Below are positions 797 through 37,941 of a DNA stretch of 38,380 nt, piece after piece. The position numbers and the translations under genes are program-made. The notes under the pieces were generated by a model that ran no database searches, was not told the DNA's origin, and was given only the letters and a program-made list of their open reading frames with translations. Source of the stretch: Acidobacteriota bacterium (lineage in GTDB: Bacteria > Acidobacteriota > UBA6911); assembly GCA_050010475.1 (NCBI GenBank), contig JBEKKY010000001.1, forward strand, positions 1 through 38,380, read 5' to 3'. The first letter of the stretch is position 1. The number at the start of each line of letters is the position of its first letter.

Positions 797-862
797 ACCG
801 CGAATTGCCACGGATTCTCGCAGACAAGGAGGGTCCGTGTAAATCTGTGGAAACCCGCAACT
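797..862. repeat. Degenerate inverted repeat with ~10-bp periodic arms (CCACGGATT/AATCTGTGG family)
   Basis: ccgcgaattg ccacggattc tcgcagac ... gtccgtgt aaatctgtgg aaacccgc; related to 22404-22485 and 37918-37941. Confidence 0.65.
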
Positions 863-897
863 TAGTTTTTTAAAGACAACAAGGCCTCCCTATCTGG

Positions 898-917
898 TTT
901 GTGATGTATCTCACAAA
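898..917. promoter_or_regulatory. CRP/FNR-family (or Rex-like) operator, TGTGA-N6-TCACA
   Basis: TTTGTGA TGTATC TCACAAA: perfect 7-bp inverted arms, about 50 bp upstream of the ORF at 966. Confidence 0.6.
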
Positions 918-965
918 GCAGGGTTCGGCATTCGTCGATCAGTTTGCTAGGAGTATTCATAGGCT

Positions 966-1247
966 ATGTTACTACCGTCCATTCTCAGGATATTGGATCA
1001 AGAGCACAATCAGTGGACAATTCCTGAGCACCTGCAGCCCCGGACGCTTCCCCAATTGGAGGGAGCAACGGGCTTGCAAACAATTGAACGGGAGATCGCA
1101 GCTGCCGCCGAGTTAGCAAAACCCTCCGACGTGAAGCCCCAGCCCAAGGGGACTCCGGTAGCCGGACCTTTTCTGGATGAACTGCTCCGGGCCATTACGA
1201 AGTTTGAAAAATCCGATCAGTCGCGCGTAGTGGACGTTTTCGAGTAA
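966..1247 (+). CDS. Small hypothetical protein (93 aa)
   Basis: ATG start, AGGAG at 949-953, fills the gap between mtaB and icd and is followed by a hairpin. No recognisable domain. Confidence 0.6.
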   Translation: MLLPSILRILDQEHNQWTIPEHLQPRTLPQLEGATGLQTIEREIAAAAELAKPSDVKPQPKGTPVAGPFLDELLRAITKFEKSDQSRVVDVFE

Positions 1248-1254
1248 AAGCAAT

Positions 1255-1323
1255 AACCCCGAAACACACAAAAGACACGAAAAGCATAAAGAGAACTTTC
1301 GTGTACTTCGTGTATTTCGTGGT
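1255..1323. repeat. Inverted repeat with 9-bp periodic arms (CACGAAANA / TNTTTCGTG)
   Basis: cccgaaaca cacaaaaga cacgaaaag ... ttcgtgtac ttcgtgtat ttcgtggt; same family as 26735-26785. Confidence 0.85.
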
Positions 1324-1394
1324 CCTCGATGCCCAGACCGAAATCCAGTATTATAGATATTCAGGCATTATTTCCTGAGGCACAAGGAGATGGT

Positions 1395-3629: not shown

Positions 3630-3658
3630 GGCTCCATCGGCCAGGCAGCACAACGATA

Positions 3659-3732
3659 ATTGACGATTTACGATTGACGATTGTAGATTGCAACGCCTTT
3701 CAATCGTCATTCGTCAATCGTAAATCGTAAAT
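3659..3732. repeat. Inverted repeat of tandem heptamers (ATTGACG)n ... (CGTCAAT)n between convergent icd and acpS
   Basis: attgacg atttacg attgacg attgtag attg - 10-nt loop - caat cgtcatt cgtcaat cgtaaat cgtaaat. Confidence 0.9.
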
Positions 3733-3742
3733 ATGAAGGGCG

Positions 3743-4117: not shown

Positions 4118-4167
4118 CGCTCAGCTCCGAGTTGACAGAGGTGGACGTGACACCTCAATATTCGAAC

Positions 4168-4983: not shown

Positions 4984-4995
4984 CCGTTATCGCTT

Positions 4996-5035
4996 TCAAT
5001 CGTCAATTGTCAATCGTCAATCGTCAATTGTCAGT
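4996..5035. repeat. Tandem heptamer array (YGTCAAT)x5, single arm; the last unit contains the rlmN stop codon
   Basis: caat cgtcaat tgtcaat cgtcaat cgtcaat tgtcagt. Confidence 0.9.
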
Positions 5036-6074: not shown

Positions 6075-6097
6075 TTGAATTAAGCTTTCTCTCTGCA

Positions 6098-6106
6098 ACA
6101 ATACCA
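6098..6106 (-). promoter_or_regulatory. Extended -10 candidate for rlmN
   Basis: TG-G-TATTGT on the minus strand, about 24 nt upstream of ATG 6074. Confidence 0.4.
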
Positions 6107-6109
6107 TTT

Positions 6110-6158
6110 TCAGTCGTCAGTCGTCAGCGTGGCTCACTGAAGACTAACGACTGACGAC
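6110..6158. repeat. Inverted repeat of tandem heptamers (TCAGTCG)n ... (CTGACGA)n
   Basis: tcagtcg tcagtcg tcag ... ctgaaga ctaacga ctgacga c, between divergent genes. Confidence 0.8.
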
Positions 6159-6229
6159 GGTTTGGGCCTTCAGGCCCGAGCGAGAATGTGGTAAGTAATA
6201 ACGGGATAAACTTGAAACATCCAACAACC

Positions 6230-7492: not shown

Positions 7493-7495
7493 TCC

Positions 7496-8281
7496 ATGGG
7501 GCTGAGCTTTATATTACTGGGCAGCGGCAGCTCGGGGAATGCAACTTTGGTTAGCGATGGCGCAAAGCATATCCTGGTGGATGCCGGACTGAGCGGACGC
7601 GAGACTGCAAGACGATTGAGGGAATGCGGGCTGGAGCCCGAGGATGTATCGGCAATCGTGATTTCGCACGAACACGGCGATCATTGCCGCGGCGTCGGGC
7701 CGTTCTCGAAAGACCTCGACATTCCGGTCTTCATGACCGATGGGGCTTTCGGCAGTTCCGGTCTGGTTCTGGATCCGAAAAGGCGCCGGCCGATCAGTCC
7801 CGGGGAACAGTTCGATGTGCATGGAATTTGTTTCACCTGTTTCTCCGTGCCGCATGATTCCGCAGATCCGCTCGGCTTCATCATTGAGAATGGTGGAATC
7901 AAAATCGGGATCGTGCTGGACTTGGGATATCTCTCCAATCTTGTTCTCGAGCGCCTGAAAGGCTGTGACGCGGTCGTGATTGAATCAAACCACGATGTCC
8001 AAATGCTCAAGGTGGGGCCATACCCGTGGGCTTTGAAGCAGCGGGTCATGAGTCGGCTCGGCCATCTCTCCAATGATTCGGTTGCGCAATATTTAAAGGA
8101 CGATTTTGACGGGAAGGCCACCCACGTGATTTTGGCTCACCTGAGCAAGAATAACAATCTTCCCGAGCTGGCCTTGCTGTCTGCTCAAAGAGCATTGGAG
8201 TCACGACCGACGTCCGCCGTATTGCAGACAAAGCTGGAATTGGCCAAACCCGACCGGATCAGCAGGACGTATCGCTATTAA
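7496..8281 (+). CDS. MBL-fold metallo-hydrolase (YycJ/WalJ-like)
   Basis: LGSGSSGNA, SHEHGDH, PHD, DLG, ESNHD, GHLSN, LAHLS. Confidence 0.92.
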   Translation: MGLSFILLGSGSSGNATLVSDGAKHILVDAGLSGRETARRLRECGLEPEDVSAIVISHEHGDHCRGVGPFSKDLDIPVFMTDGAFGSSGLVLDPKRRRPISPGEQFDVHGICFTCFSVPHDSADPLGFIIENGGIKIGIVLDLGYLSNLVLERLKGCDAVVIESNHDVQMLKVGPYPWALKQRVMSRLGHLSNDSVAQYLKDDFDGKATHVILAHLSKNNNLPELALLSAQRALESRPTSAVLQTKLELAKPDRISRTYRY

Positions 8282-8320
8282 AAAATTGCGAACCAAATGA
8301 GTTCGACGAAAAGGCTTTTG

Positions 8321-8464
8321 AACCGCAGAATATCGAACAAGAAATGTCGAATTTCGAAGTGCCAGATCAGGACGGGATGATTTCTGCGGTTCGAAATTCT
8401 AAATTTCAAATATTTTTGTTTAGGAATGTTGAATATTTCGAGACTCGGGTTTCGAAGTCTCGGA
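8321..8464. repeat. Degenerate heptamer-periodic inverted repeat (AATATCG/AATTTCG type) plus a small hairpin
   Basis: gaaccgcag aatatcg aacaaga aatgtcg aatttcg ... ttctgcggttc gaaattc taaattt caaatat, then cgagact...agtctcg. Confidence 0.7.
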
Positions 8465-8478
8465 GAGGAACGGACGTC

Positions 8479-9774
8479 ATGATCGACCGTTACATGCCCC
8501 CCGATTTTGCAGAGATCTGGTCGGAAGAGAATATGTTCCGCACCTGGTTGAAGGTGGAGCTGGAGGTCTGCCGGATGCTTGCCGAAAAGGGCTGGATACC
8601 CAGGGAATCCCTGGAGACCATTGAAAAAAAGGCAAACTTTTCCGTTGCCCGGATCAAGGAAATCGAGAACGTGACGCACCACGACCTGATTGCTTTTACG
8701 ACGAGCGTTGCGGAGTATGTCGGGCCGGACTCGCGATACATTCACTGGGGCCTTACCTCCACCGACGTGATCGATACCGCCCGTGGCCTGCAGCTGAAGC
8801 AGGCCAGCGACAAAATACTTGCCGCGATCGAAGAGCTTCGCGAAGCTATACGGCAAAGGGCGCAGGAACACCGCAAAACTCTCGTGATGGGGCGGACTCA
8901 TGGTGTGCACGCGGAACTGACGACGTTTGGGCTGAAGCTGGCCGTCTGGTATGACGAGATGAGGCGCAATCTGGAACGCATGCAGCGGGCATCAGAAGCG
9001 GTTGCGGTGGGAAAATTGTCGGGCGCCGTCGGAACTTTTGCTCATCTCGATCCGGATGTCGAGGCGCGCGTGTGCGAGCGCCTGGGATTGAAAGCGGCGC
9101 CCATATCCACTCAGACGCTTCAGCGAGACCGGCACGCCGAATATCTTTGCACCATTGCCATTATCGGGAGCTCACTGGACAAATTTGCGACCGAGATCCG
9201 GCATCTCCAGAGAACCGAAGTGAGGGAAGCCGAAGAACCCTTTGCCGCCGGACAGAAGGGCTCCTCCGCCATGCCCCACAAACGGAATCCGGTCAAATGC
9301 GAGCAGATTTCCGGATTGTCCCGGCTGCTGCGCGGATACGCCATCACGGCGCTGGAAAATGTTCCGCTCTGGCATGAACGGGATATTTCCCATTCCTCAG
9401 TGGAGCGTGTCACTCTGCCCGATGCGACTTCTGTTCTTTGCTACATGCTCCGCGCGATGACCAAAATCATTTCCAGAATGGTGGTCTATCCGGACCGGAT
9501 GCTCAAAAATATTGAACTGACGCGGGGTCTTGCTTATTCGGGCCAGTTGCTCCTGGATCTCACGCGCAAAGGGGTCTTGCGTGAAGATGCGTACCGCTGG
9601 ATTCAGCGGTGCTCCATGAAAGTGTGGGACGAGGATAAAGATTTTGTTCGAGTCCTTCAGGAAGACCCCGACATTACCCGCGTGCTCACTGGCGAAGAAA
9701 TCCGATCGGTTGTGAATCCGGAACTCCAGCTGCGCAATGTGGACGCTATCTTTGCCCGGGTATTTGACCGCTAG
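8479..9774 (+). CDS. purB: Adenylosuccinate lyase
   Basis: MIDRY, HHDLIAF, HWGLTSTD, GRTHGVHA, QKGSSAMPHKRNP, WHERDISHSSVER; GAGAGG RBS. Confidence 0.98.
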   Translation: MIDRYMPPDFAEIWSEENMFRTWLKVELEVCRMLAEKGWIPRESLETIEKKANFSVARIKEIENVTHHDLIAFTTSVAEYVGPDSRYIHWGLTSTDVIDTARGLQLKQASDKILAAIEELREAIRQRAQEHRKTLVMGRTHGVHAELTTFGLKLAVWYDEMRRNLERMQRASEAVAVGKLSGAVGTFAHLDPDVEARVCERLGLKAAPISTQTLQRDRHAEYLCTIAIIGSSLDKFATEIRHLQRTEVREAEEPFAAGQKGSSAMPHKRNPVKCEQISGLSRLLRGYAITALENVPLWHERDISHSSVERVTLPDATSVLCYMLRAMTKIISRMVVYPDRMLKNIELTRGLAYSGQLLLDLTRKGVLREDAYRWIQRCSMKVWDEDKDFVRVLQEDPDITRVLTGEEIRSVVNPELQLRNVDAIFARVFDR

Positions 9775-9802
9775 CCGGTTGGGAATCGTGGTTGGATCAG
9801 AA

Positions 9803-9820
9803 AACGGGGAACGGGGAACG
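9803..9820. repeat. Short tandem heptamer (AACGGGG)x2.6
   Basis: Same unit as 24527-24677; lies between convergent genes. Confidence 0.65.
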
Positions 9821-9821
9821 A

Positions 9822-11375
9822 TCAGTCAACTTGCTTCTGCTTTCCGCCGATGATGCTCCGCCCGCCCGGTGTGAAATATCGCTCGGCCAGGCGTGCCAGA
9901 CGCACGAATGGGAGGCCGATCAGAAAGTACATTGCGGCAGCCAGCAATCCAATTCCAAGATAGTCATAATGAATGCTGGCCAGCTCGCTGTAAGCTTTGG
10001 TCAGTTCCACCATCGTGATAACCGAAACAAGCGAAGAATCCTTGAGGAGAGCAATGAAATCATTGGTCACCGGCGGTATCACCATGCGAATGGCCTGCGG
10101 GATAATCACGTAACGCAAAGCCTGCATCTGTGTCATTCCAAGAGCCAGCGCGGCCTCCATCTGGGTCTTGGGAATTGACTGAATGCCGGCCCGATAATTT
10201 TCAGCCTCGTAGGCGCTGTAATTCAGAGCAAGGCCCAGAACCGCTGCAAGCATTGGGGACAGTCGGATTCCGATGTGGGGCAATCCATAGAAAATTAGAA
10301 AAAGCTGAACCAAAAGAGGAGTGCCGCGGATCAGTTCAATATAGGCAACAGCAAACGTGCGCAGGAATCTGGGCGCATAGAGGCGCGCCAACGCGATATT
10401 CAATCCTGCGAAGACGGCCAGAATCATCGACATGATCGACAGTTCCAGAGTGACCACAGCTCCCTTTGCCAGCAACGGCAGATAGCCCGCATACTGAACG
10501 ACCTTCTCCCATCCGGAATTTTTCTTCAGCCTGCTTTCCAGGTATGTGTCGTAGTCCGGATGCTGCTGATTTGGAGGACCTGCTTTACCCAGAATTCCAT
10601 TGCACACGGGTGTCCACAGGTTCCAGTTTTCGAGAATGCGCCTCAATTCGCCGGAAGCAATCATTTGAGTGAGCGCCGCATCTATTTCCTCCACAAGCTC
10701 GGCGTCGTCCTTGCGGACGGCGATTCCGTATTCAATGCGCCCCAGAGGCGGTCCTGTGATCCTCAGCCCGGGAATGGATGCGACGTTGTAGAGCCCGATG
10801 ATATAGTCCATCAATACGGCATCCACACGGCCGTTGAGAAGGTCTTCGTATGCATTGATCTGTCCGTCATAACTGAGAACTTGTAGATCGTTGCGTTCAT
10901 ACAGCATTCGCTCCGCCAGACTGGCCTTCAATGTGCCCACTTTTTTCCTGCTGCAGTCGTCGAGCGTGCGAATTCGGGATTCCTTCTTGCGTACGACCAG
11001 CTGTTCGTAGGTAACGTAGTAAGGGCGGCTGAAGCGTATGACGCGTGAACGGTCCGGCGTAATTTCGAGTCCCGAAACCACCATCCGGTAATTGCCGCGC
11101 TCCAGCCCGGGAATCAGCCCATCCCACTGATTCTGTACGAACTGGGTTGGGCGGCCCAGGATTCTGCCGATGGCATTTACAATGTCGACCTCAAATCCAA
11201 TGATCCGGCTCGGGTTTTGAGGATCCTGAAACTCGTAGGGAGCGCCTCCTTCCGCGTCGGCGCCCCAGGTTATTGGACTGCGCGAGGAGGTCTGAGCCGG
11301 CGCAAAAGCAGGCGCCGCGCAGAGAACAGCGCAAAAGGCCAGCAGGGAACTGCATTTTCGGATCAATGGTTGCAC
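9822..11375 (-). CDS. Polar amino acid ABC transporter, fused substrate-binding protein and permease
   Basis: Signal peptide, SBP_bac_3 features (APYEF, GFEVDI, FSRPYY), permease motifs RGTPLLVQL, AYEAENYRAGI, EAA, LLKDSSLVSVI. Confidence 0.93.
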   Translation of the reverse strand: MQPLIRKCSSLLAFCAVLCAAPAFAPAQTSSRSPITWGADAEGGAPYEFQDPQNPSRIIGFEVDIVNAIGRILGRPTQFVQNQWDGLIPGLERGNYRMVVSGLEITPDRSRVIRFSRPYYVTYEQLVVRKKESRIRTLDDCSRKKVGTLKASLAERMLYERNDLQVLSYDGQINAYEDLLNGRVDAVLMDYIIGLYNVASIPGLRITGPPLGRIEYGIAVRKDDAELVEEIDAALTQMIASGELRRILENWNLWTPVCNGILGKAGPPNQQHPDYDTYLESRLKKNSGWEKVVQYAGYLPLLAKGAVVTLELSIMSMILAVFAGLNIALARLYAPRFLRTFAVAYIELIRGTPLLVQLFLIFYGLPHIGIRLSPMLAAVLGLALNYSAYEAENYRAGIQSIPKTQMEAALALGMTQMQALRYVIIPQAIRMVIPPVTNDFIALLKDSSLVSVITMVELTKAYSELASIHYDYLGIGLLAAAMYFLIGLPFVRLARLAERYFTPGGRSIIGGKQKQVD

Positions 11376-11388
11376 GATGCTCTCAAAA

Positions 11389-12156
11389 TTACAGAAATCG
11401 CCGCAGAAACTGCCGTGTCCGGTTATCCAGAGGGTCGGAGAAGATTTTTCCCGCTGTGCCCTCTTCCACGATCACGCCGTCAGACATAAAAACTACTTTG
11501 TCCGCAGCATCCCGCGCAAAGCGCATCTCATGTGTGACAACGAGCTGAGTGATTCCCTCGGAATCGAGCTCCTTCATGACCTCAAGCACTTCATCCACGA
11601 GTGTTGGGTCCAGTGCGGAGGTCGGTTCATCATAAAGCAGAATTCTTGGCTTCATGGCCAGTGCTCGCGCAATAGCGGCGCGCTGTTGCTGTCCGCCGGA
11701 AAGCTGCGCTGGAAACAGGTTTCCCTTGTCCGCCAGTCCGACCTTTTTGAGCAACGCGAATGCTTGGACGCGAGCGTCGCTGCGGGGAATGCCCTTTACG
11801 ATCACGGGCGGAAAGGCGACATTGTCCAACGTCGACATGTGAGGAAACAAATTGAACGATTGAAACACCATCCCTACCATGGACCGAAGCTGATGCATCT
11901 TTCGCGGGTATGCGCGGGCGGCAGTGCGGCCACTTGCACTGTTTCCGTCCAGCGTAAGACCTGCAATGGAGATTCGGCCCTCGTCAAAGGTCTCAATCCC
12001 GTTCAAACATCTCAGCAGAGTCGATTTGCCGCATCCGGACGGACCGATGAGCACCGTCAGCTGATTGGAATCGATGCATAAATCAATTCCGCTCAGTACC
12101 GGATTTCCCTGAAAAGACTTCTTCAGGGCCTGAATTTCGACAAGGGGCTGTTTCAT
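11389..12156 (-). CDS. Polar amino acid ABC transporter ATP-binding protein (GlnQ-like)
   Basis: GPSGCGKS, VFQSFNLFPH, LSGGQQQR, DEPTSALDP, VTHEM. Start is ATG 12156 or TTG 12183. Confidence 0.95.
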   Translation of the reverse strand: MKQPLVEIQALKKSFQGNPVLSGIDLCIDSNQLTVLIGPSGCGKSTLLRCLNGIETFDEGRISIAGLTLDGNSASGRTAARAYPRKMHQLRSMVGMVFQSFNLFPHMSTLDNVAFPPVIVKGIPRSDARVQAFALLKKVGLADKGNLFPAQLSGGQQQRAAIARALAMKPRILLYDEPTSALDPTLVDEVLEVMKELDSEGITQLVVTHEMRFARDAADKVVFMSDGVIVEEGTAGKIFSDPLDNRTRQFLRRFL

Positions 12157-12210
12157 CAGGCCAATAGTGTTCCACGACCGCAAAGCAACTCACAAGGGTA
12201 AATTGAGTCT

Positions 12211-12284
12211 CAGGACGCAGGAGTCAGGATACCGGACATAGTGCAGGTGCAAGAATAATCGACACTTATCCTGCATCCTGTATC
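12211..12284. repeat. Degenerate heptamer inverted repeat (CAGGANN)n ... (ATCCTGY)n
   Basis: caggacg caggagt caggata ... tatcctg catcctg tatc. Confidence 0.6.
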
Positions 12285-12302
12285 GATATCAGCCTTCCGC
12301 TC

Positions 12303-12311: not shown

Positions 12312-12902
12312 GGACACGATCGCTCGCATCGCGGGCAAAGGGTGCATCGGTTTATAGGGAAACCATGCCAAAAAGTTGCCGAATCCCCATCTTCGGTGAA
12401 TTCGATTGAGAGTATGCGGGCGTAACACCATTTCATCTCTGCTGGACCGAAGGAATTGCGGGTAGATTCGCTAAGATTCGCCCCCGAAATTAGGTTTGAT
12501 GAGGATGCAGGGCAATCAGCGTCGATTTTGCTGATCAATCAGACGTGCGGGCAGATGGTGACCCGCCAAAGCGGAGGAATTTCGATCGCAGTGGGAGATT
12601 TCCGAAATTCGCGTGAATCTCAAGAAGCATGAGTTGCGGACCGGATTAATCCGGAGAGTATCGTGTGGAGTTGATGCGGTAATGGGAAGCGAAAGGGCGT
12701 AGCCCCCAACAGGGTTGCGCTGAACAATGATTCCCTGATGAGCTGAAATTGGCAGCCTCTCCAGTTTCGCGCGTTTTGTGAAAAGACGGAACAAAGGATA
12801 TTGCTGATTGCGCGGTTTTCCCTGGGAATCGATCGTGGGCGCCCGAGACAGGGATTCTTATTGTGGAATTGGGGCTTCCTCAGGATCCGGAGTAAATTCG
12901 TA

Positions 12903-14483: not shown

Positions 14484-14488
14484 TGAAT

Positions 14489-14554
14489 TGAAAAACGGTG
14501 ACAGCCACCGATGTCCCCGAATTCGGGGACATCGGTGGCTGTCACCGTTTTTCA
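14489..14554. repeat. Perfect 66-bp palindrome (REP/REPIN-like; probable terminator)
   Basis: tgaaaaacggtgacagccaccgatgtccccgaa|ttcggggacatcggtggctgtcaccgtttttca; no spacer, no mismatch. Confidence 0.97.
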
Positions 14555-19216: not shown

Positions 19217-19300
19217 AAAAAAGGGGACGCCACCCTATTTCGCCGTCAGCTTTGATCCAGCGAGACCCAACCGGCGAAATAGGGTGGCGTCCCCTTTTTT
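19217..19300. repeat. Perfect 29-bp inverted repeat with 26-nt loop (REP-like; bidirectional terminator shape)
   Basis: aaaaaaggggacgccaccctatttcgccg ... cggcgaaatagggtggcgtcccctttttt, directly after the PP2C stop. Confidence 0.95.
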
Positions 19301-19490
19301 GGCAATTCCCGATAGTTTTCCACAGGCGGGAAGATCGGGATGGATATTCATGTTAAATGCTTTATTTGTAGGAAATAATAGGTCTCCATTCCACTGAGAT
19401 TTTCACAGGATATTCACATCGTCTCCAGCAGATAGGACAATGACCTTCCCCGGTTCCGGTTTCCCGTTTCCCGGTGGGGGAGGCAGAAGG

Positions 19491-20505: not shown

Positions 20506-20614
20506 AATTACGAATGACGAATGACGAATTGAAAAGATGCCTTTCTTGGGCGAATCCCGAAATTGTGAATCCCCAGAGAAGTATGTTTCATTTCGTCATT
20601 CGTCATTCGTAATT
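20506..20614. repeat. Inverted repeat of tandem heptamers (AATGACG)n ... (CGTCATT)n, 29-bp arms
   Basis: aattacg aatgacg aatgacg aattgaaa ... tttcattt cgtcatt cgtcatt cgtaatt (28/29 paired); near-identical arms at 33938-34047. Confidence 0.92.
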
Positions 20615-22405: not shown

Positions 22406-22485
22406 AAACGCCACGGATTCCACAGATTTCACCGATTTTATCGCCACTTTAAATCCGTGAAATCTGTGGAATCCGTGGCGTTTTT
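22404..22485. repeat. 35-bp inverted repeat with 9-10 bp periodic arms; bidirectional terminator shape
   Basis: aaaaacgccacggattccacagatttcaccgattt ... aaatccgtgaaatctgtggaatccgtggcgttttt (1 mismatch); fills the gap between two convergent stop codons. Confidence 0.95.
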
Positions 22486-22952
22486 TATTTTTTTTCGAGC
22501 TTGGCGAGCCGCGCGAGAAACTCAGCGGTTTTTGGCGAATTCGGGTTCTTCCCAATAAACTGCTTGTAGGCGGCGATCGCTTTATCCGGCTGATCGTTCT
22601 TCTCGTAAGCCCGCGTGAGAGCATCATACGCACGGATTGAGTCCGGCTGATATGCTATTGCTTCCAGATATCTGCTAATGGCTGCGGCATAGTTCTTCTG
22701 TTTGTAATAAAAGTTGCCGATGTTAAGGTTTTGCTCTGACAGAATCGGATCTGGCTCTTTGGGCGTCGAAGCGTCCGTAGTTTCTTTGCCTTCTGCCGTA
22801 TCGGTGTCCCGGATGAGCGGCGGGGGCGTTCGGGATGCGGATTGGGCGACAACCGGCTGAATTGTCAGGAGGAAAGAACCGAAAAACAGCAACAGAATTT
22901 GAAAAAGTTGAACAACTGTGCAAATTCGAGAACAGTTTCTTTGTAAGTCCAT
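22485..22952 (-). CDS. Exported tetratricopeptide repeat protein
   Basis: Hydrophobic signal segment, then TPRs (IGNFYYKQKNYAAAISRY, AIAAYKQFI..NP). Confidence 0.85.
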   Translation of the reverse strand: MDLQRNCSRICTVVQLFQILLLFFGSFLLTIQPVVAQSASRTPPPLIRDTDTAEGKETTDASTPKEPDPILSEQNLNIGNFYYKQKNYAAAISRYLEAIAYQPDSIRAYDALTRAYEKNDQPDKAIAAYKQFIGKNPNSPKTAEFLARLAKLEKK

Positions 22953-23474: not shown

Positions 23475-24560
23475 GTGGCTGCAAATGCCGATCCCATACA
23501 GACCTTATGGCAGGCGGTGCTGCTCTTGCCAGAATCTCAATCCGTACTTCCTCAGCTCGGTATCACAACAGGAGATCCGGCTGGCATAGGCCCTGAGATA
23601 TCGCTGCGTGCTGCGCGCGAACGATCTTTGGCCGGCGTGTGCCGCCTCATACTGTTTGGAAGTTGGGAACTTCTGCGGGCGAGATCTGCAGATATCGGAC
23701 TGCCCTTTGAATTCGAAAAAATCCCGATCGATTCCCTTTCGGACCGAAGCCGGCAAATTCCCGACCGATGCATTATCGATATTCCTGCGGGAAAAATTGA
23801 GGCGGGAATTGGATCAAAGGCAAGCGGTGAGGCCGCTGCGCGGAACATCATCGAATGCGCTTCCGCGTGCCGGAGAGGGCTGCTTGATGCCATAGTGACG
23901 GCTCCCCTGAACAAAAAATATTTCCAGGAAGCAGGATATTCCTTTCCCGGTCACACTGAATTCCTGGCTCACCTCGCCGGCGTTTCGGATTTTGCAATGG
24001 CTTTCTTAACCGAGCGTCTTAAGGTCGTGTTGGCCACGATACACGTTTCGTTGCGGGACGCCATAGAGTCGATCACGCCGGAGCTGGTTTACTGCAAGTT
24101 GCGGATCATCCTGACGGAATTCCGGCGCCTCGGATTGCCTTGCCGCAAAGTGGCGGTTGCCGGACTCAATCCTCATGCCGGAGAGTCGGGGATCATGGGC
24201 ACTGAAGAGATGGAACGGATCGCGCCTGCGGTCCGCAAAGCCCAGAGCCTCTTCACCGATTCAATGATCGATGGACCTCTCCCGGCGGACACGCTGTTCT
24301 GGCGGGCCTATAACGGCGAGTTTGATGTTGTGCTGGCCATGTATCACGATCAAGGTCTGGCGCCGATTAAACTGGTGGGATTTGGCGAAGCGGCAAACGT
24401 GACCTTGGGCCTTCCTTTTGTCCGCGCCTCTGTAGACCACGGGACTGCATATGATATTGCGGGAAAAGGAGTCGCGCGTCACGACAGCATGAACGCGGCA
24501 ATTCGGTGGGCCCTGCGGCTGATAACCGTTCCCCGTTCCCCGTTCCCCGTTTCCCGTTGA
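23475..24560 (+). CDS. pdxA: 4-hydroxythreonine-4-phosphate dehydrogenase PdxA family
   Basis: GDPAGIGPE, TAPLNK, GHTE, GLNPHAGE, PADT, MYHDQGL, SVDHGTAYDIAG. The true start may be TTG 23526. Confidence 0.93.
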   Translation: MAANADPIQTLWQAVLLLPESQSVLPQLGITTGDPAGIGPEISLRAARERSLAGVCRLILFGSWELLRARSADIGLPFEFEKIPIDSLSDRSRQIPDRCIIDIPAGKIEAGIGSKASGEAAARNIIECASACRRGLLDAIVTAPLNKKYFQEAGYSFPGHTEFLAHLAGVSDFAMAFLTERLKVVLATIHVSLRDAIESITPELVYCKLRIILTEFRRLGLPCRKVAVAGLNPHAGESGIMGTEEMERIAPAVRKAQSLFTDSMIDGPLPADTLFWRAYNGEFDVVLAMYHDQGLAPIKLVGFGEAANVTLGLPFVRASVDHGTAYDIAGKGVARHDSMNAAIRWALRLITVPRSPFPVSR

Positions 24561-24677
24561 AAACCAAGAATTGGCTAAGCGCATGCCGGATGGAATCCGC
24601 TCCGTGCGCTGCTCCTCTGTTACCGCGCGGCAGTGCCGAAAATTTAATCCGCTATTTCTAACGGGGAACGGGGAACG
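24527..24677. repeat. Inverted repeat of tandem heptamers (CGTTCCC)n ... (AACGGGG)n; left arm overlaps the pdxA 3' end
   Basis: cgttccc x3 cgtttcc cgttgaaaa ... tttctaacgggg aacgggg aacg. Confidence 0.85.
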
Positions 24678-26705: not shown

Positions 26706-26732
26706 GAATTCAGGAGTCAGAAGTCAGAATTC
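26706..26732. repeat. Tandem heptamer (AGTCAGR)n, single arm
   Basis: gaattcag gagtcag aagtcag aattc. Confidence 0.65.
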
Positions 26733-26734
26733 AT

Positions 26735-26785
26735 ACCACGAAATACACGAAAGGCCTCTTTTGTGTATTTCGTGTGTTTCGTGGT
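26735..26785. repeat. Inverted repeat with 9-bp periodic arms, abutting the rfbD stop
   Basis: accacgaaatacacgaaa ... tttgtgtatttcgtgtgtttcgtggt; same family as 1255-1323. Confidence 0.88.
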
Positions 26786-27633: not shown

Positions 27634-27647
27634 AGTGCTGAAAATGC

Positions 27648-29479: not shown

Positions 29480-29562
29480 GAGTTGACCTCAAATAAATGA
29501 GATGATTTCAAAACAAGCGCCTACTATAACTCTGAGGGCCGGCTCTTAAAACAAAGAAAACA

Positions 29563-29632: not shown

Positions 29633-29638
29633 TCTCGA

Positions 29639-31327: not shown

Positions 31328-31362
31328 AGCGCACCCTCCGAGCGGATCAAATCCGTGAGAAG

Positions 31363-31391
31363 ATTATAGGTATTCCGAACCGTTGAGTCAA
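31363..31391 (-). promoter_or_regulatory. Near-consensus sigma70 promoter for the GWxTD gene
   Basis: TTGACT (31391-31386) - N17 - TATAAT (31368-31363). Confidence 0.7.
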
Positions 31392-31558
31392 CGAATGCGG
31401 AATTGCGGATCGAATGACCCGCGGAAGCGCACCGATCCGCAGCTGTGGCCTCCAATTTACGAAAATGGTATAAAGAGTACATGGGTATACTCTATTCAAA
31501 GAATGTCTTACCTTAAGTATAGGATCTGCAACAAAAGGAAATGGTTCAATGGGTGAAA

Positions 31559-31597
31559 AATCAGGAATCAGGAATCAGGAATCAGGAATCAGGAATC
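31559..31597. repeat. Perfect tandem heptamer (AATCAGG)x5.6
   Basis: Five exact copies plus AATC in the leader of the acyl-CoA dehydrogenase gene. Confidence 0.97.
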
Positions 31598-31622
31598 TCT
31601 CAAACCTGAGAGGTGAACCTCA

Positions 31623-32807
31623 ATGAGTCCTGAAGCTCCAAGTGCAGAAAGCGGAAACGCACTGCCATTGACAGTCCTAACAGAAGATGAACGGTTGTTT
31701 CGCTCCAGCATTCGGGATTTTGCAGATGAGCAGATTCGGCCGTTGGTGTCCCGGATGGATCAAGAGGAGCGAATCGATCCTGCGCTGATTCGGCAATTCT
31801 TCGAACTGGGACTCATGGGAGTGGAAGTCAGCGAAAACTATGGTGGCTCAGGGGGGACTTTCTTTATGGCAATCCTCGCCGTAGAGGAGATCTCAAGGGT
31901 CGACGCTGCGGCAAGCATTATTGTGGATGTCCAAAACACTCTGGTGAACAATGCCATCACTCGCTGGGGGACTGAGGAGGTGAAACGGAGATACCTCCCG
32001 CGTCTTTGCGCAGAAAGCGTCGGCGCCTATGCGCTCTCCGAGGCCGGGTCCGGGAGCGACGCTTTCGGAATGGCTACCCGGGCCGTAAAGCGCGGCGGCG
32101 GATTTGTTCTGAACGGCCGCAAGCTTTGGATCACCAATGCGGCTGAAGCCGAAATATTCATCGTTTTCGCAAATATCGATCCATCGGAAGGCTACCGGGG
32201 AATAACAGCATTAATCCTTGAGAAAAACACCCCCGGGTTTGCCGTGGGCAAGAGAGAGGACAAGCTCGGAATCCGGGCCAGCTCCACTTGTGAATTGATT
32301 CTGGATGACTGCTATGTCCCCGACAATCAGATCCTTGGCGATCCCGGAAAGGGATACAAGGTTGCGCTGGAAACCCTGAATGAAGGGCGCATCGGGATCG
32401 GCGCTCAGATGATAGGAGTCGCTGAGGGAGCTCTCGAGTGTGCAATCCGGTATTCGCACGAACGAAAGCAATTTGGAAAGACCCTCTCCGGCTTCCAAGC
32501 AGTTCAGTTTCAAATCGCCCAGATGGCAACCGAACTTGAAGCGGCGCGGCTGATGGTCTACAACGCCGCAAGACTGAAAATGACGGGAAAAAGCTATCTC
32601 AAAGAAGCCGCGATGGCGAAGTATATTTCCTCGGTAATGGCTGAGCGCATCACCAGTCAATCCCTCGAGTTGTTTGGAGGATATGGCTATACCCGTGAAT
32701 ATCCTGTGGAAAAATATTACAGAGATGCGAAGATTGGAAAGATATACGAAGGCACTTCCAACATGCAGCTTCAAACAATTGCCAAGCAGATTCTGGGATC
32801 CTCTTGA
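31623..32807 (+). CDS. Acyl-CoA dehydrogenase (short/branched-chain type)
   Basis: DVQNTL, ALSEAGSGSDA, KLWITN, KLGIRASST, LNEGRIGI, RKQFG, GGYGY, IYEGT; GAGGTG RBS. Confidence 0.93.
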   Translation: MSPEAPSAESGNALPLTVLTEDERLFRSSIRDFADEQIRPLVSRMDQEERIDPALIRQFFELGLMGVEVSENYGGSGGTFFMAILAVEEISRVDAAASIIVDVQNTLVNNAITRWGTEEVKRRYLPRLCAESVGAYALSEAGSGSDAFGMATRAVKRGGGFVLNGRKLWITNAAEAEIFIVFANIDPSEGYRGITALILEKNTPGFAVGKREDKLGIRASSTCELILDDCYVPDNQILGDPGKGYKVALETLNEGRIGIGAQMIGVAEGALECAIRYSHERKQFGKTLSGFQAVQFQIAQMATELEAARLMVYNAARLKMTGKSYLKEAAMAKYISSVMAERITSQSLELFGGYGYTREYPVEKYYRDAKIGKIYEGTSNMQLQTIAKQILGSS

Positions 32808-32811
32808 ACTT

Positions 32812-32864
32812 CAAAGACACAAAGGCTCAAAAGAGCAAATTCGAGCCGTGGAGCCTTCAAGGCT
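32812..32864. repeat. Degenerate inverted repeat with 8-bp periodic arms
   Basis: caaagaca caaaggct caaaag ... ttcgagcc gtggagcc ttcaaggc. Confidence 0.55.
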
Positions 32865-32946
32865 AGAAAAGTTTTGCAAAAAAGCTGCGGCAATGCCAGT
32901 ATGTGCGACTGCAAATTGTTACAAAGCGAATTGTTGAGAAAAACCT

Positions 32947-33963
32947 ATGACCGATACCCCCCCAAAAATGATTATTGTTTCCGGCATTCAACCCTCCGGA
33001 GACCTCCATCTCGGCAACTACTTCGGCGCTGTCCAGCAATTCATTCAATTCATTGAAGATGGGCATGAGTGCTATTACTTTTTGGCCAACTATCATGCGC
33101 TGACCACCATCCGTGACCGGCAGCAGCTGATGGACCTGACGCGGAATGCGGCCGTCAGCTATCTGGCTCTGGGGTTGGATCCACAACGCTGTGCCATCTA
33201 TTTGCAAAGCGACCTGTCCGAAGTCTGCGAACTGCAGTGGTTGCTGACAACCGTGACACCGATGGGACTGCTGGAACGCTGCCATGCATATAAGGAGAAA
33301 GTTCAGCAGGGTATAACGGCCGATCATGGCCTTTTCGCATACCCCGTATTGATGGCTGCCGATATCTTGATCGTTCGCGCCAACCGGGTTCCCGTGGGAC
33401 AGGATCAAAAGCAGCATGTGGAGGTGACCCGCGATATCGCTCAGTACTTCAACAATGCTTACGGGGAAATGCTGACAATTCCCGAACCATATATTCAGGA
33501 GAGCGTGGCAACTGTTCCCGGCCGGGATGGACGAAAAATGTCCAAATCTTACAACAATACGATCGGGCTGTTTGCGAAAGAAGAGGAACTGCGCCAGCAG
33601 ATATTCTCGATTGTAACCGACTCGGCTTCGGTTGCGGAACCGAAAGACCCGGATCGCAGCGTGCTTTACGCAATCCTCAAGCTTTTTTGCGATTCCGAAA
33701 CCCAGGCCTATTGGGCCGATCGCTTCCTCAGCGGAGGATTGAGTTACCGCGAGGTGAAACAGGCCATATTCGACAAGTTTATGGAAAAGTTCGGACCTGC
33801 CCGCGCCCGCCGCGAAGAGCTCTTGAAGCAGCCGGAGTTCGTGGACCAGATACTGAAACGTGGTGTGGAACAGGCGCGCAGCATAGCCTTGCCCCTGGTG
33901 CGTCAAGTTCGAGATGCAGTAGGAATACCGAATGCTAAATTACGAATGACGAATGACGAATGA
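32947..33963 (+). CDS. trpS: Tryptophan--tRNA ligase
   Basis: SGIQPSG, HLGN (HIGH-like), YPVLMAADIL, VPVGQDQKQH, KMSKS. Confidence 0.98.
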   Translation: MTDTPPKMIIVSGIQPSGDLHLGNYFGAVQQFIQFIEDGHECYYFLANYHALTTIRDRQQLMDLTRNAAVSYLALGLDPQRCAIYLQSDLSEVCELQWLLTTVTPMGLLERCHAYKEKVQQGITADHGLFAYPVLMAADILIVRANRVPVGQDQKQHVEVTRDIAQYFNNAYGEMLTIPEPYIQESVATVPGRDGRKMSKSYNNTIGLFAKEEELRQQIFSIVTDSASVAEPKDPDRSVLYAILKLFCDSETQAYWADRFLSGGLSYREVKQAIFDKFMEKFGPARARREELLKQPEFVDQILKRGVEQARSIALPLVRQVRDAVGIPNAKLRMTNDE

Positions 33964-34047
33964 CGAATTGAAACATCAGGCAGGAGTTATTCCTCACCTT
34001 TGGCTTCAGCCCTTCAATTCGTAATTCGTCATTTGTAATTCGTAATT
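33938..34047. repeat. Inverted repeat of tandem heptamers whose arms contain the stop codons of both trpS and pepP
   Basis: aattacg (aatgacg)x3 aattgaa ... ttcaatt cgtaatt cgtcatt tgtaatt cgtaatt. Confidence 0.93.
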
Positions 34048-35450: not shown

Positions 35451-35498
35451 GATGATCTCCTTACTCAGGAAGTTCAGGAATTATTATAGCGAAAAAAC

Positions 35499-35554
35499 CG
35501 TATACGCGTTCACGGGTTTATGCGTTAAAGGGCAAACGCGTGAACGCGTAAACG
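35499..35554. repeat. Inverted repeat with 8-bp periodic arms (CGTTYACG / CGTRAACG)
   Basis: cgtatacg cgttcacg ggtttatg cgtt ... aacg cgtgaacg cgtaaacg. Confidence 0.8.
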
Positions 35555-35574
35555 CTCCATCGGTGTGCTCGATA

Positions 35575-35601
35575 GTAAAACGGTGACTGTCGCCGTTTTA
35601 C
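35575..35601. repeat. Single REP-like palindrome of the GGTGAC family
   Basis: gtaaaacggtgac t gtcgccgttttac; shares aaaacggtgac with the 66-bp palindrome. Confidence 0.8.
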
Positions 35602-35604
35602 CCG

Positions 35605-35634
35605 TTGACACTTAACCGGGTGTCCAATTATCGT
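35605..35634 (+). promoter_or_regulatory. Sigma70 promoter candidate for the AOR gene with overlapping GACAC-N8-GTGTC operator-like site
   Basis: TTGACA - N18 - TATCGT. Confidence 0.5.
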
Positions 35635-35700
35635 TTACCACTTTGCGGTATCGGCCCGCCTTCAGGAAGCGGGACCCGAGTGGAATCTGGAAGGAACAGT

Positions 35701-37908
35701 ATGAAATACGACAGGGGGGGAATTCAGCGCGGTTACACCAACAGGATCCTCTGCATCGATCTGACAACCGGCGCGATGACTGCCCCGGAACTGGACCCGC
35801 AGGTGCGAGATTACTTCCTCGGCGGGCGCAGTCTGGGACTCTACCTGTTGCATAAAGCGATTACTCCTGGAACGTTGCCCGGAGATCCGGAGAATCCGCT
35901 GATCATTGCGAACGGACCGCTTGGGGGAATCCCGCAATTCCCTGGCACTGCAAAAGCGATGGCTGTGTCGCTCTCCCCTCTCACGGGCATTCCGGGCGTT
36001 TCCAATTTCGGTGGACACTTTGGGGCCTACCTCAAATATGCCGGGTTCGATGCTCTCCAGGTGACCGGAATCGCCGATCGCGACGTCAGCATCGTCATCA
36101 ATGGCTACAATAGAGAGGTAACGATTGAGGATACTCCTTCGGACGAGGAGGCTTTTGATCTGGAGCGCCACATTGCCGAACGCCTGACGTCCCAGGGGTA
36201 TGACAAACGGCATATCGCCTTTTTATCCACTGGAATTGGAGCGGCAAACACAGATTACGGCTGCATTAATAGCCACTATTTTGATGTCACGAAACCGGTT
36301 GACGGGCATAGAGGCCTCTTTCGCGTCAAACAGGCCGGACGCACAGGGATCGGCACCGTCATGAACAGGAAGAGGATCCAGTCCGTTATCGTCATGACCG
36401 ATAATCCTCGTGGGGAGAATCCTTATGGCGCGGCTGATTGGGAAAGAGTGAAACTGGCTGGAGCGAAACTGCACAAGGTCGTGAAGGATGTCGACCCGCA
36501 GTCGCTGAAAATGCATCGCAAGGGGAGCGCAGGCTTGATCAGCTTCATGAGCAAGATCGAGTACCAGTCGCTGCCGGTCCGCAATTTCCAGGGCGGATCG
36601 GATCCGAGGGCGGCGCAGATTTGCGGCAAGTACTATGCAGAACATCTCTTCGAGCATCGGGGAATGGACGGATGTTTCCCGGGTTGCAACCTCCAGTGTA
36701 CGAAAGGGGGGTGGGTGACGCTTGTGAGCGGCACGCATGCAGGCCGCCGGGTTTGGGTGGATGGGCCGGAGTACGAAACAGCCGCCGGTTTCGGTTCCAA
36801 TCTGGGAATATGGAACGCCGAATTCATCATGGAGGCAAACTGGCACTGTGACAATTATGGGATTGACACGATCACCACTGCCGGAGGCATGGCGTTCCTG
36901 ATGGAATGTTTCCAGCGTGGATACCTGATGCAAAAGAATGGCGAAGGGCTTGTCCTCTCGTGGGGAGACGAATCAAGCGCATTGGAGTTTATCCACCGCC
37001 TTGCTCACGGAGCGGCCGACATGGCGCGCGCAGCGGGAAAAGGAATCAAATTTCTGGTGGAATGGGTGGCACAAAAACACGCATCCAGAACAGGAGAAGA
37101 CATCCGGCCCGAGCTTGAAAAATTTGCCATGCACGCCAAGGGACTGCCGTTCACATTCTACCGGACCCATCGCTCGCTCTCGATGCAAGGTTCCTATGCC
37201 GCGGCCAGCGATATCGGCGCACATCACGCGGCGGCATGGCTCATCAAAGCCGACCTGCTGGGAGCTTTCCCGAGTTTTGAAGACAAGGCCCGTGCCCTCA
37301 TCAACTATCCCCGGGTGCGGCTCGGAAACGACAATATGGGAGTCTGCAAACTCCCTTGGGTAGACGTGTTTAATCCGGAATCTGCCAACCGCACCGGCGC
37401 CGATATATACATCAATCCGGCCTCTCAGGAAATCTACGCGGAATTCTACAATGGAGTGCTGGGCACAAACCTGAGCTGGGAGGATATTTTCGCCCAAACC
37501 GACCGGGATATTAATCTTCAGAGAATCCTCAACGTACTCCATTACGGGTGGGAAACAGGACGGCACGACTGGATTCCAGACCGGGCAATCGGTCCGACGG
37601 ATGACTTCCTCTACCAAGCTGAAGCGGAGTACAACGACAAAGACCTGGCTGCGCGAATCGGCGGGCCCATCGATGAAATGACCACCGGCTCCAAGCGAGA
37701 ACTGCTGATGAAATTGCGCAAAAAGGAACTGCGCCGTCTGATTGACGTCTATTATCAGGAGCGTGGCTGGAATAGTCGCGGCATTCCCCTGCCGGAGACG
37801 CTGAAGGAACTGGGATTATGGAATTTCCTGAATGACGAGACTCGTTCCATTATCGAACAACTGACTTCTAAAAAATGCCACGCTCTCCCCATGCATTGCA
37901 CAAATTAG
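35701..37908 (+). CDS. Aldehyde:ferredoxin oxidoreductase family protein (W/Mo-bis-pterin, 4Fe-4S)
   Basis: SPLTG...SNFGG, LKYAGFDAL, AGRTGIG, Cx3Cx3C cluster, GPEYET, CDNYGID, GVCKLPW, YYQERGW. AAGGA RBS before ATG 35701. Confidence 0.92.
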   Translation: MKYDRGGIQRGYTNRILCIDLTTGAMTAPELDPQVRDYFLGGRSLGLYLLHKAITPGTLPGDPENPLIIANGPLGGIPQFPGTAKAMAVSLSPLTGIPGVSNFGGHFGAYLKYAGFDALQVTGIADRDVSIVINGYNREVTIEDTPSDEEAFDLERHIAERLTSQGYDKRHIAFLSTGIGAANTDYGCINSHYFDVTKPVDGHRGLFRVKQAGRTGIGTVMNRKRIQSVIVMTDNPRGENPYGAADWERVKLAGAKLHKVVKDVDPQSLKMHRKGSAGLISFMSKIEYQSLPVRNFQGGSDPRAAQICGKYYAEHLFEHRGMDGCFPGCNLQCTKGGWVTLVSGTHAGRRVWVDGPEYETAAGFGSNLGIWNAEFIMEANWHCDNYGIDTITTAGGMAFLMECFQRGYLMQKNGEGLVLSWGDESSALEFIHRLAHGAADMARAAGKGIKFLVEWVAQKHASRTGEDIRPELEKFAMHAKGLPFTFYRTHRSLSMQGSYAAASDIGAHHAAAWLIKADLLGAFPSFEDKARALINYPRVRLGNDNMGVCKLPWVDVFNPESANRTGADIYINPASQEIYAEFYNGVLGTNLSWEDIFAQTDRDINLQRILNVLHYGWETGRHDWIPDRAIGPTDDFLYQAEAEYNDKDLAARIGGPIDEMTTGSKRELLMKLRKKELRRLIDVYYQERGWNSRGIPLPETLKELGLWNFLNDETRSIIEQLTSKKCHALPMHCTN

Positions 37909-37917
37909 AGCTGGAAA

Positions 37918-37941
37918 AATCCGTGGAATCCGTGGCGTTTT
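37918..37941. repeat. Single arm of the CCACGGATT-family repeat
   Basis: aatccgtggaatccgtggcgtttt, nearly identical to the right arm at 22461-22484. Confidence 0.8.

Follow-up and report, generated by a model that had tools for sequence, protein, structure and literature searches.

Between the genes of a 38,380-nt stretch of DNA from an Acidobacteriota bacterium of the UBA6911 lineage (GenBank assembly GCA_050010475.1, contig JBEKKY010000001.1, positions 1–38,380) lie many short tandem arrays of 7- to 9-nt units, often mirrored by an inverted array and paired with it in a hairpin whose arms are periodic. This stretch is called the window here; it is contig C1 of the genome labelled G000, the other G0xx labels denote congeners, and G014 is the closest relative. 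A preliminary description of the window listed 18 such loci and proposed that they are non-autonomous or "empty" forms of a mobile cassette system. The loci are given below, where TRF marks arrays called by Tandem Repeats Finder and z compares folding with that of dinucleotide shuffles.

797–860: degenerate hairpin of the 9-mer CCACGGATT family between tandem genes (−24.7 kcal/mol, z −3.17; no TRF call), terminal anchors of the family matching at 808–850
1256–1323: 9-mer hairpin of unit CACGAAANA, arms 1256–1282 and 1297–1323 with 14 nt between them, 81% complementary (z −4.69; TRF call at 1298–1321, period 9)
3659–3732: 7-mer hairpin ATTGACG / TCAATCG, arms 3659–3693 and 3698–3732, between the convergent isocitrate dehydrogenase (IDH) and ACPS genes (z −6.34)
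4996–5033: lone array of TCAATCG, 5.4 copies, without partner arm, between convergent genes (TRF)
6103–6161: 7-mer hairpin TCAGTCG / ACTGACG between the divergent RlmN and M16 peptidase genes (z −3.93)
8341–8407: hairpin of AATTTCG-like units inside a spacer of about 196 nt (inverted-repeat pair, z −4.27)
9803–9820: lone array of AACGGGG, 2.6 copies, between convergent genes (TRF)
12205–12290: weak hairpin with CAGGAGT-like heptamer arms (z −2.30; 4 of 200 shuffles fold as well; no TRF call)
19449–19473: lone array of CCCGTTT, 3.6 copies (TRF), missing from the preliminary description
20506–20614: 7-mer ACGAATG hairpin, arms 20506–20534 and 20586–20614, 97% complementary, 51-nt loop, between divergent genes (z −12.06)
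22391–22498: gene-less 9-mer CCACGGATT element, arms 22391–22438 and 22451–22498, ends AAAAACG and CGTTTTT, between the convergent holB and TPR genes (z −12.74)
24527–24677: 7-mer hairpin CCGTTCC / AACGGGG with a loop of 91–115 nt, between the convergent pdxA and pepA genes (z −4.48), its left arm running into the end of the pdxA reading frame
26706–26733: array of GAAGTCA, 4 copies (TRF), the left arm of a 7-mer hairpin that G014 has complete
26735–26785: 9-mer hairpin with arms CACGAAATA (z −8.25), at the position of the 7-mer loop and right arm of G014
31559–31597: lone array of AATCAGG, 5.6 copies with 100% matches, upstream of an acyl-CoA dehydrogenase gene (TRF)
32812–32870: weak 8-mer-like hairpin CAAAGACA / CAAAGGCT (z −1.95), clearer in G014
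33938–34047: 7-mer ACGAATG hairpin, arms 33938–33972 and 34013–34047, 40-nt loop, between the convergent trpS and M24 peptidase genes (z −9.25)
35499–35554: 8-mer hairpin of the ACGCGTTT family between divergent genes (z −4.76)
37918–37935: half 9-mer element, two copies of AATCCGTGG followed by CGTTTT (TRF)

TRF at a score of at least 30 gave 27 rows in the window, mainly of periods 7 and 9, and an inverted-repeat tool gave 46 pairs, which join many of the arrays into hairpins with arms of 18–48 nt. Fourteen of the 18 loci listed earlier are backed by one or both tools, namely those of period 7 at 3659, 4996, 6110, 9803, 20506, 24527, 26706, 31559 and 33938, that of period 8 at 35499, and those of period 9 at 1255, 22404, 26735 and 37918; the loci at 797, 8321, 12211 and 32812 are weak or degenerate and were recognised by eye and folding only. 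The longest period had been given as 9–10; the 9-mers were found again, but no true 10-mer was seen in the window. Measured copy numbers (2.0–5.6) agree with the two to six tandem copies described. Mirroring by an inverted array holds for 13 loci, which are paired hairpins with 4–115 nt between the arms, but six (4996, 9803, 19449, 26706, 31559 and 37918) are single arrays without a partner. As described, the 18 loci occupy convergent (7), divergent (5) and tandem (6) spacers between Pfam-supported open reading frames (ORFs), and the 33 ORFs scanned in the window include no transposase, nuclease or four-helix-bundle protein. No Rfam family matched the window at the gathering threshold.

The whole window holds 23 arrays of period 7–9, against 2.28±1.61 (maximum 6) in 100 dinucleotide shuffles, and 21 of them lie mostly within the 3,500 nt of intergenic DNA that make up 9% of the window. 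For intergenic DNA taken by itself, 20 arrays were observed and 0.22±0.52 in shuffles, so the suggestion that they are no more frequent than slippage would produce clearly fails. Eleven of the 13 folded loci have z values of −3.1 or below, the lowest being −12.7. The 1256–1323 hairpin stops 6 nt upstream of the predicted ATG (1329) of the monomeric IDH gene, and its stem would therefore take in the ribosome-binding region, unless the true start is elsewhere.

The feature is real, non-random and genome-wide. In the G000 assembly (4.06 Mb, 516 contigs, 53% G+C), arrays counted by TRF were compared with a third-order Markov simulation as follows.

Period 6: 173 observed, 19 simulated
Period 7: 727 observed, 71 simulated
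Period 8: 331 observed, 99 simulated
Period 9: 419 observed, 77 simulated
Period 10: 131 observed, 139 simulated, no excess

The dominant units by array count are AATCGTC (93), AATTACG (82), AATCTCG (68) and AACGGGG (51), together with AATCCGTGG (97) and AAACGCGT (54). Neighbouring arrays with related units are inverted in 264 cases, direct in 11 and ambiguous in two, with 248 of 266 separated by 0–100 nt, and 252 hairpins have spacers of at most 150 nt. Terminal anchors identify 110 elements of the CCACGGATT family with a median length of 57 nt; their loops are mutually unrelated, with only 4 of 231 pairs alike. Arrays are no commoner at contig ends than expected (71 of 1032 ends, against an expectation of about 6%).

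Loops of 9-mer hairpins were seen to hold other palindromes (G000 C145:6831–6948 and C160:5183–5333; G014 L012 3650–3770), which belong to the GGGGACGCCACCC family and to a CATGTGGGGACGG...CCGTCCGCACATG family; from these sequences, hairpin tips seem to be favoured landing places for other hairpin elements. At C358:459–1196 of G000, two ACCGCGAAG-type 9-mer hairpins flank a pair of small ORFs of 88 and 66 aa, of toxin-antitoxin size, which may be a third kind of cargo.

The preliminary description suggested that similar 7-mer arrays flank genes of the four-helix-bundle family TIGR02436 and similar 9-mer arrays those of the GxxExxY family TIGR04256. This association was borne out in the genome itself, in the genus and, for GxxExxY, across many phyla. 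G000 has two matches to TIGR02436 and three to TIGR04256, one of the latter with an internal TAA, and all five genes have periodic arms.

C484 (2201–2654): four-helix-bundle gene, arms AGTCGCC / GACTAAC, 7-mer
C126: four-helix-bundle gene, GCCCACT, 7-mer, downstream arm only, because the contig ends there
C113 (5144–5620): GxxExxY gene, arms CCACGGATT / AATCCGTGG, 9-mer
C142: GxxExxY gene, arms CTTTGAGT / ACTCAAAG, 8-mer
C78: GxxExxY gene, arms TCCGCGTCCG, 10-mer

Among 30 genomes of the genus, TIGR04256 was present in 12 and TIGR02436 in 23. All 25 TIGR04256 loci examined are flanked by arrays of period 8, 9 or 10. For TIGR02436, 30 loci of 81 listed matches were examined, and 23 have period 7, one mixed periods 7 and 8, four period 8 and one period 6, while one fragment has none; main arms of 9 or 10 nt were found at none of the 30. 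The cross-phylum set comprises 80 loci related to the C113 protein at 46–81% identity, with named records from Acidobacteriota, Chloroflexota, Bacteroidota, Planctomycetota, Patescibacteria and others. At 65 of these 80 GxxExxY loci an array lies within 250 nt. The best arrays have periods of 9 (56), 10 (24), 8 (11), 11 (2), 12 (3) and 4 (1), and period 7 does not occur among them.

The gene-less hairpins of the window are tied to the gene-bearing cassettes by their ends and units. The C113 cassette starts with AAAAACG-CCACGGATT and ends with AATCCGTGG-CGTTTTT, termini identical to those of the 22391–22498 hairpin and present on 36 of 40 listed period-9 hairpins of G000; the window 9-mer hairpins share with it the exact termini AAAACG-CCACGGATT ... 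AATCCGTGG-CGTTTT. Filled counterparts of 7-mer families lie at four-helix-bundle loci of congeners: that of ATTGACG at L066 (G012), that of the 24527 family, as CCGTTTC / AACGGGA, at L064 (G034), and that of the 26706 GAAGTCA family, as TTCAGGAGTCAGAA, at L071 (G037). ACTGACG-like units occur at the filled loci L049 and L061, and relatives of the 6103 units flank four-helix-bundle genes at C484 and in G014 and G018. The tail of C484 (2201–2729) and the head of C126 (1–320) share 74 identical nt, which follow two four-helix-bundle genes whose proteins are only 53% identical and whose heptamers differ; this looks like an assembly bubble with two alternative cassettes at one site in the population or, less probably, a misassembly.

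The GxxExxY protein, of about 115 aa, matches PF13366 with an E value of 3e-38, and its residues D61, E71 and K73 are invariant in 15 sequences from the genus, which fits the D ... E-x-K motif of PD-(D/E)XK enzymes. Neither the protein nor its profile gave a hit in sequence searches of the PDB. The best Foldseek match of its AlphaFold model (pLDDT 95.4) is weak, 4ic1 (SSO0001; E 5.6e-4, TM 0.61–0.67), followed by lambda-exonuclease-like and Hjc-like chains. By predicted fold and motif, this protein qualifies as a member of the PD-(D/E)XK superfamily and a putative nuclease. The C484 four-helix-bundle protein matches PF05635 (E 2e-32), has a weak match to bAvd, and resembles the Xanthomonas XCC0516 protein in the PDB (2gsc, E 2e-21).

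The arms had been supposed to be recognised by periodicity or structure; the data point to sequence instead. Within a family, five to seven positions of the unit stand at a frequency of at least 0.9 and one or two are free, and in the unit xCACrGATT seven positions reach at least 0.98. At 29 of 77 cross-phylum loci the upstream side carries two or more copies of the core CRCRRATT, and at 30 of 77 the downstream side carries two or more copies of its complement; the wrong polarity appears in only three upstream and three downstream regions, and chance would give 0.024 hits per 200 nt. Retention of this core at about 50% protein identity would imply that the unit sequence itself is read. Exact compensatory changes between the arms of the 9-mer family are not in excess (222 cells against an upper bound of 305 under independent variation), in a test blurred by unit-length indels, and the two arms of a 9-mer element resemble each other more than they resemble the arms of other elements (0.605 vs 0.521; 0 of 2000 permutations). 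At four-helix-bundle loci, protein identity correlates with heptamer distance, with a mean of 3.4 below 40% identity and 1.7 at 70–85%. Three groups of proteins 67–74% identical have identical heptamers, and four pairs at 70–75% differ at three positions. Since gene and arms are inherited together, this correlation does not distinguish recognition from common descent.

The elements are not fixed at orthologous sites: congeners carry empty, replaced and different-family alleles, as expected of the mobile system proposed earlier. G014 is syntenic with positions 6148–37875 of the window at 82–90% identity, and the alignment breaks at the hairpins. The spacer at 8281–8477, about 196 nt with hairpins in the window, is about 18 nt in G014. 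At 9803, G014 carries an 8-mer AAGACTC hairpin instead of the AACGGGG array. In place of the 7-mer hairpin at 20506–20614, G014 has an 8-mer ACGCGTTT hairpin next to ATTCGTAATT, a remnant of the 7-mer arm, and at 26706–26785 the complete 7-mer hairpin of G014 has in the window lost its loop and right arm to a 9-mer hairpin; at two sites, then, a hairpin of one period was replaced by one of another period with a remnant left behind. The 22391–22498 element has identical ends in G014 around a loop of about 110 nt that resembles a palindrome nested in other copies, and no element was found at this site in G008, G011 or G005. The arms at 24527–24677 are the same in G014 and the loops mostly different, whereas at 33938–34047 both arms are ACGAATG in the window and both ACGATTG in G014. 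At 37918 the half 9-mer element of the window faces an unrelated palindrome. At 31559 G014 has 2.5 AATCAGG units and lacks the acyl-CoA dehydrogenase gene of the window (31623–32807).

The pdxA/pepA site was compared in eleven genomes. No element is present in G008, G010, G015 or G016, and G011 has no periodic array. The other six genomes carry four families: CCGTTCC as hairpins in the window and G014, AATCTGG as arrays in G004 and G017, AGCTGAA as an array in G005, and CACGGATT as a hairpin in G018. Without insertion, it is difficult to see how different families could have come independently to occupy one site. Contigs from public peat and wetland metagenomes break at the hairpins, and in one of them, from run X2, the array at 24666 has one extra AACGGAA, a whole-unit polymorphism. 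Contig joints such as 22438>37917 and 20537>34013, considered as rearrangements, were read instead as contigs from other copies of the same families. No RNA run was among the public runs listed as containing the stretch.

Further differences between the window and G014 were seen near these sites. The region 31437–32883 is a whole-gene indel bounded by repeat elements, and in G014 the AATCAGG array directly adjoins the 8-mer hairpin. A 66-nt perfect palindrome at 14489–14554, between amidohydrolase and PEGA/TPR genes, is replaced in G014 by a different palindrome of the GGGGACAGGCTACGCAAT family, which also lies downstream of the AFOR gene of G014, where the window has the half 9-mer element. 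A segment of 373 nt (12365–12737) is absent from the syntenic site of G014; neither an Rfam match nor a convincing ORF family was recognised in it. The region 9768–12272, 2.5 kb with an ABC transporter, corresponds to 4.4 kb in G014, and the repeat elements at its left junction differ.

Abundance of the arrays partly follows the cassettes. The genomes richest in ACCGCGAAG arrays (G011 with 143, G004 with 64, G006 with 13 and G034 with 12) all have the cognate filled cassette, and the family is abundant only in such genomes. For CCACGGATT, G000, which has the CCACGGATT cassette, gives 286 pattern matches, against at most 109 in any other genome. Samples of G000 contain 26 inverted array pairs in 376 kb.

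G000 also has six matches to the Y1 transposase family PF01797. Inverted periodic arms surround none of the six, and only a 2.1-copy heptamer lies near the match on C288. This match (C288:2679–3005) is flanked by non-periodic palindromes of the GGGGACGCCACCC family, to which positions 19217–19300 of the window also belong; with a Y1 gene between palindromes like the repetitive extragenic palindromes (REP), a system of REP and REP-associated tyrosine transposase (RAYT) therefore seems to coexist with the periodic-arm elements. The sequence at 19217–19300 is a perfect palindrome with 29-nt non-periodic arms (AAAAAAGGGGACGCCACCCTATTTCGCCG ...).

Taken together, these comparisons make it probable that most of the loci are gene-less, non-autonomous relatives of palindromic cassettes like the intervening sequences (IVS) of 23S rRNA, behaving like REPINs and having periodic arms of specific sequence. 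The full element would be a gene for a protein of about 120 aa with an array of a short unit on each side, the two in inverted orientation. Its gene would be of one of two types, a four-helix bundle (PF05635 / TIGR02436) with arms mainly of 7-nt units or a GxxExxY PD-(D/E)XK nuclease-like protein (PF13366 / TIGR04256) with arms of 8- to 10-nt units, and the window would hold short forms only, either arms with a 4- to 115-nt loop or a single arm. Short forms would insert into intergenic DNA as they spread, in many cases within or next to a hairpin already there. Their spread would require a factor able to recognise the sequence of the unit, most likely the cassette protein, supplied in trans like RAYT in the case of REPINs, and the arms would later lengthen or shorten by slippage. 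Once transcribed, the 20- to 35-bp stems would be substrates of RNase III, by analogy with 23S rRNA intervening sequences, and some stems may act as terminators; a role for the host in RNA termination or processing may thus be overlaid on mobile elements.

Several observations weigh against this account. That the loci are empty forms of a mobile cassette is favoured by the filled forms, the shared termini and the lack of fixation, but mobility is suggested by comparison of sequences, and we saw no insertion event, intermediate or enzyme activity. None of 22 loops resembles the interior of a filled cassette at E<0.01 (nor did shuffled loops), and origin by internal deletion is therefore not demonstrated. 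In G004, a GxxExxY cassette with one common internal deletion (profile positions of about 33–77 missing) occurs at four loci (L043–L046 on C5, C130, C133 and C161), but each copy is part of a larger repeat bounded by ACCTGACTTGACCG-type terminal inverted repeats of its own and hence gives no clean proof that the cassette itself moves. The three most abundant 7-mer families (AATCGTC, AATTACG and AATCTCG) have no filled copy in the G000 assembly. Target-site duplications of 3, 4, 5 and 6 nt were found at 0, 1, 0 and 0 of 109 copies of the 9-mer family, numbers that do not exceed those from shuffled pairings. Arrays of CCACGGATT are plentiful without any TIGR04256 gene in G009 (109), G018 (72) and G037 (43), and in G014 (83), whose GxxExxY genes have other arms; the cognate gene is therefore unnecessary for their persistence. 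The 333 kb sampled from four genomes that lack both genes contain no inverted array pair, and the 392 kb sampled from five genomes that have them contain 13, a contrast confounded by kinship and by the 65–69% G+C of most of the cassette-less genomes. The ACCTGACTTGACCG-type terminal motif was also seen at the pdxA/pepA site of G018.

A bolder extension, which we put forward tentatively and regard as rather doubtful, is that each small protein reads its own unit with one subunit per unit. The period (7 or about 9) would then be the footprint of the protein, and the gene, together with the binding sites in its inverted arrays, would be a new kind of self-propagating module, moved or copied without a classical transposase. 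A possible route would be cutting of the cruciform or hairpin by the PD-(D/E)XK protein, with gene-less hairpins as progeny that depend on it in trans. If true, this would explain the dispersed heptamers of bacteria, which have long lacked an explanation (the short tandemly repeated repetitive sequences, STRR, and GGGAATC of Xanthomonas) and the origin of ORF-bearing 23S IVS.

The hairpins might also be, mainly, RNA elements that serve the host and are under selection in place, as bidirectional terminators, 3' stabilisers or RNase III sites, with the cassette genes as occasional passengers. We think this unlikely, although convergent spacers have hairpins more often (10.2%) than tandem (6.2%) or divergent ones (6.3%; rough ORF calls), and elements of the 9-mer family stand in 20 of the 482 convergent spacers and in 11 of the 495 divergent ones, though the latter are longer. 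Ends of the form AAAA(A)CG ... CGTTTT(T), like those of a two-way intrinsic terminator, are found on 55 of 109 copies of this family, a terminator scan picks 22464 and 22425, and at 14484 and 37908 another palindrome occupies the corresponding position in G014, as though any hairpin sufficed. Placement does not follow termination, however, at the five divergent loci of the window or at 34 of the 252 hairpins of the genome; among 116 hairpins in tandem context the sense strand is the more stable in 50 and the antisense strand in 66 (p 0.16), the 7-mer hairpins lack T-runs, four congeners do without any element at pdxA/pepA, and the unit cores keep their sequence, a constraint that stem formation by itself would not impose. 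Selection for an RNA function can, moreover, coexist with mobile elements, as exaptation.

Still less probable is movement of the hairpins as REPINs by the Y1 (IS200/IS605-type, RAYT-like) transposases of the genome without involvement of the cassette genes. The genome has such genes, the lack of target duplication suits this enzyme class, and the C288 gene does lie between REP-like palindromes, but these are non-periodic, none of the six genes has inverted periodic arms, and the period tracks the family of the cassette gene and not any transposase. Disfavoured, and very improbable in our view, is the formation of the arrays as microsatellites by slippage in place, mirrored by local inverted duplication, with neither mobility nor a link to genes. 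Whole-unit length differences between strains would fit it, and Rehm et al. (2015, PMC4692102) cite a slippage hypothesis for the overrepresentation of heptamers in bacteria at large. It leaves unexplained the great preponderance of inverted over direct pairs, the single terminal-anchor design of the 110 9-mer copies with the AAAA(A)CG end on 55 of 109, the same families around the same genes across genomes and phyla, the different families at one orthologous site, and the count of arrays in the window far above that of shuffled intergenic DNA.

Among described systems, the IVS of Coxiella burnetii and Leptospira are similar in having a PF05635 (S23p) gene within terminal inverted repeats that form a long stem, as is the case at C484:2201–2654. 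In the part of Warrier et al. (2016, PMC4990558) that describes the Coxiella IVS, the S23p ORF is enclosed by a terminal stem of 28 bp, which RNase III cleaves, and there are tandem heptamers (GACAGAT, three copies) whose number varies with the strain. The elements described here differ in lying between protein-coding genes and not in rRNA, in the wholly periodic arms, in the lack of an ORF at the window loci and in most other copies, and in the second, unrelated gene family (GxxExxY) with the same design and a longer unit. The 23S genes of G011 (two copies), G014, G017 and G037 are 3,005–3,017 nt long against a model of 2,925 positions, and so hold no ORF-sized insert; that of G000 is unassembled.

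In behaviour, the closest analogue is the REPIN-RAYT system (Bertels and Rainey 2011, PMC3116915; PMC3337134). As far as the relevant sections of these papers go, the likeness lies in hundreds of intergenic inverted-repeat doublets (here 264 inverted against 11 direct), in the presence of these repeats around one or a few protein genes, in family-specific sequences without target duplication, and in an abundance that here partly tracks the cognate gene. The differences are that the flanked genes encode a protein of predicted PD-(D/E)XK fold or a four-helix bundle without known catalytic activity in place of a Y1 transposase, and that the arms are tandem arrays of units, not a single REP. Miniature inverted-repeat transposable elements are likewise short, non-coding, multi-copy and intergenic with terminal inverted repeats, but the present elements show no target-site duplication (9-mer family), have no DDE transposase partner and have internally periodic arms. 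As to intrinsic terminators, about half of the 9-mer copies have A-run and T-run ends and may act in this way, the 7-mer families lack such ends, and hairpins also occupy divergent spacers.

Intergenic tandem heptamers are also known as the STRR of heterocystous cyanobacteria (units STRR1–3). Period and intergenic location are alike, whereas the host is here an Acidobacteriota (the nearest named records of one gene are metagenome-assembled genomes of that phylum) and the units differ from those of STRR. The heptamers GGGAATC of Xanthomonas and GGGGAYT of Nostoc are similar in that length and sequence vary among close relatives while the site is kept (Rehm et al. 2015); here, G-rich units are in the minority, there are also arrays of periods 8 and 9, and the arrays are tied to two cassette families. 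In the sections of that paper on these repeats, 70–75 convergent pairs of GGGAATC arrays able to form stem-loops are reported for Xanthomonas, the authors state that they found no detailed literature on heptameric repeats, the repeats are read as formers of G-quadruplexes, and four-helix-bundle genes are not mentioned. Our literature search, with subscription journals and supplementary files outside its reach, found no paper that links periodic arms to TIGR02436 or TIGR04256 genes.

In summary, about 250 hairpins and well over a thousand short-period arrays lie between the genes of a 4-Mb genome and turn over faster than the adjacent genes. They break short-read assemblies and, with locations at promoters, operon junctions and 3' ends, may affect transcript processing. 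If the link to the cassettes is true, one explanation would serve for the dispersed heptamers, for the "IVS protein" and GxxExxY gene families, which are widespread but functionless-looking, and for ORF-bearing rRNA IVS. Together with REPIN-RAYT, there would then be two cases in which a population of repeats is bound to a single-copy gene, and in the present one the proteins are not transposases.

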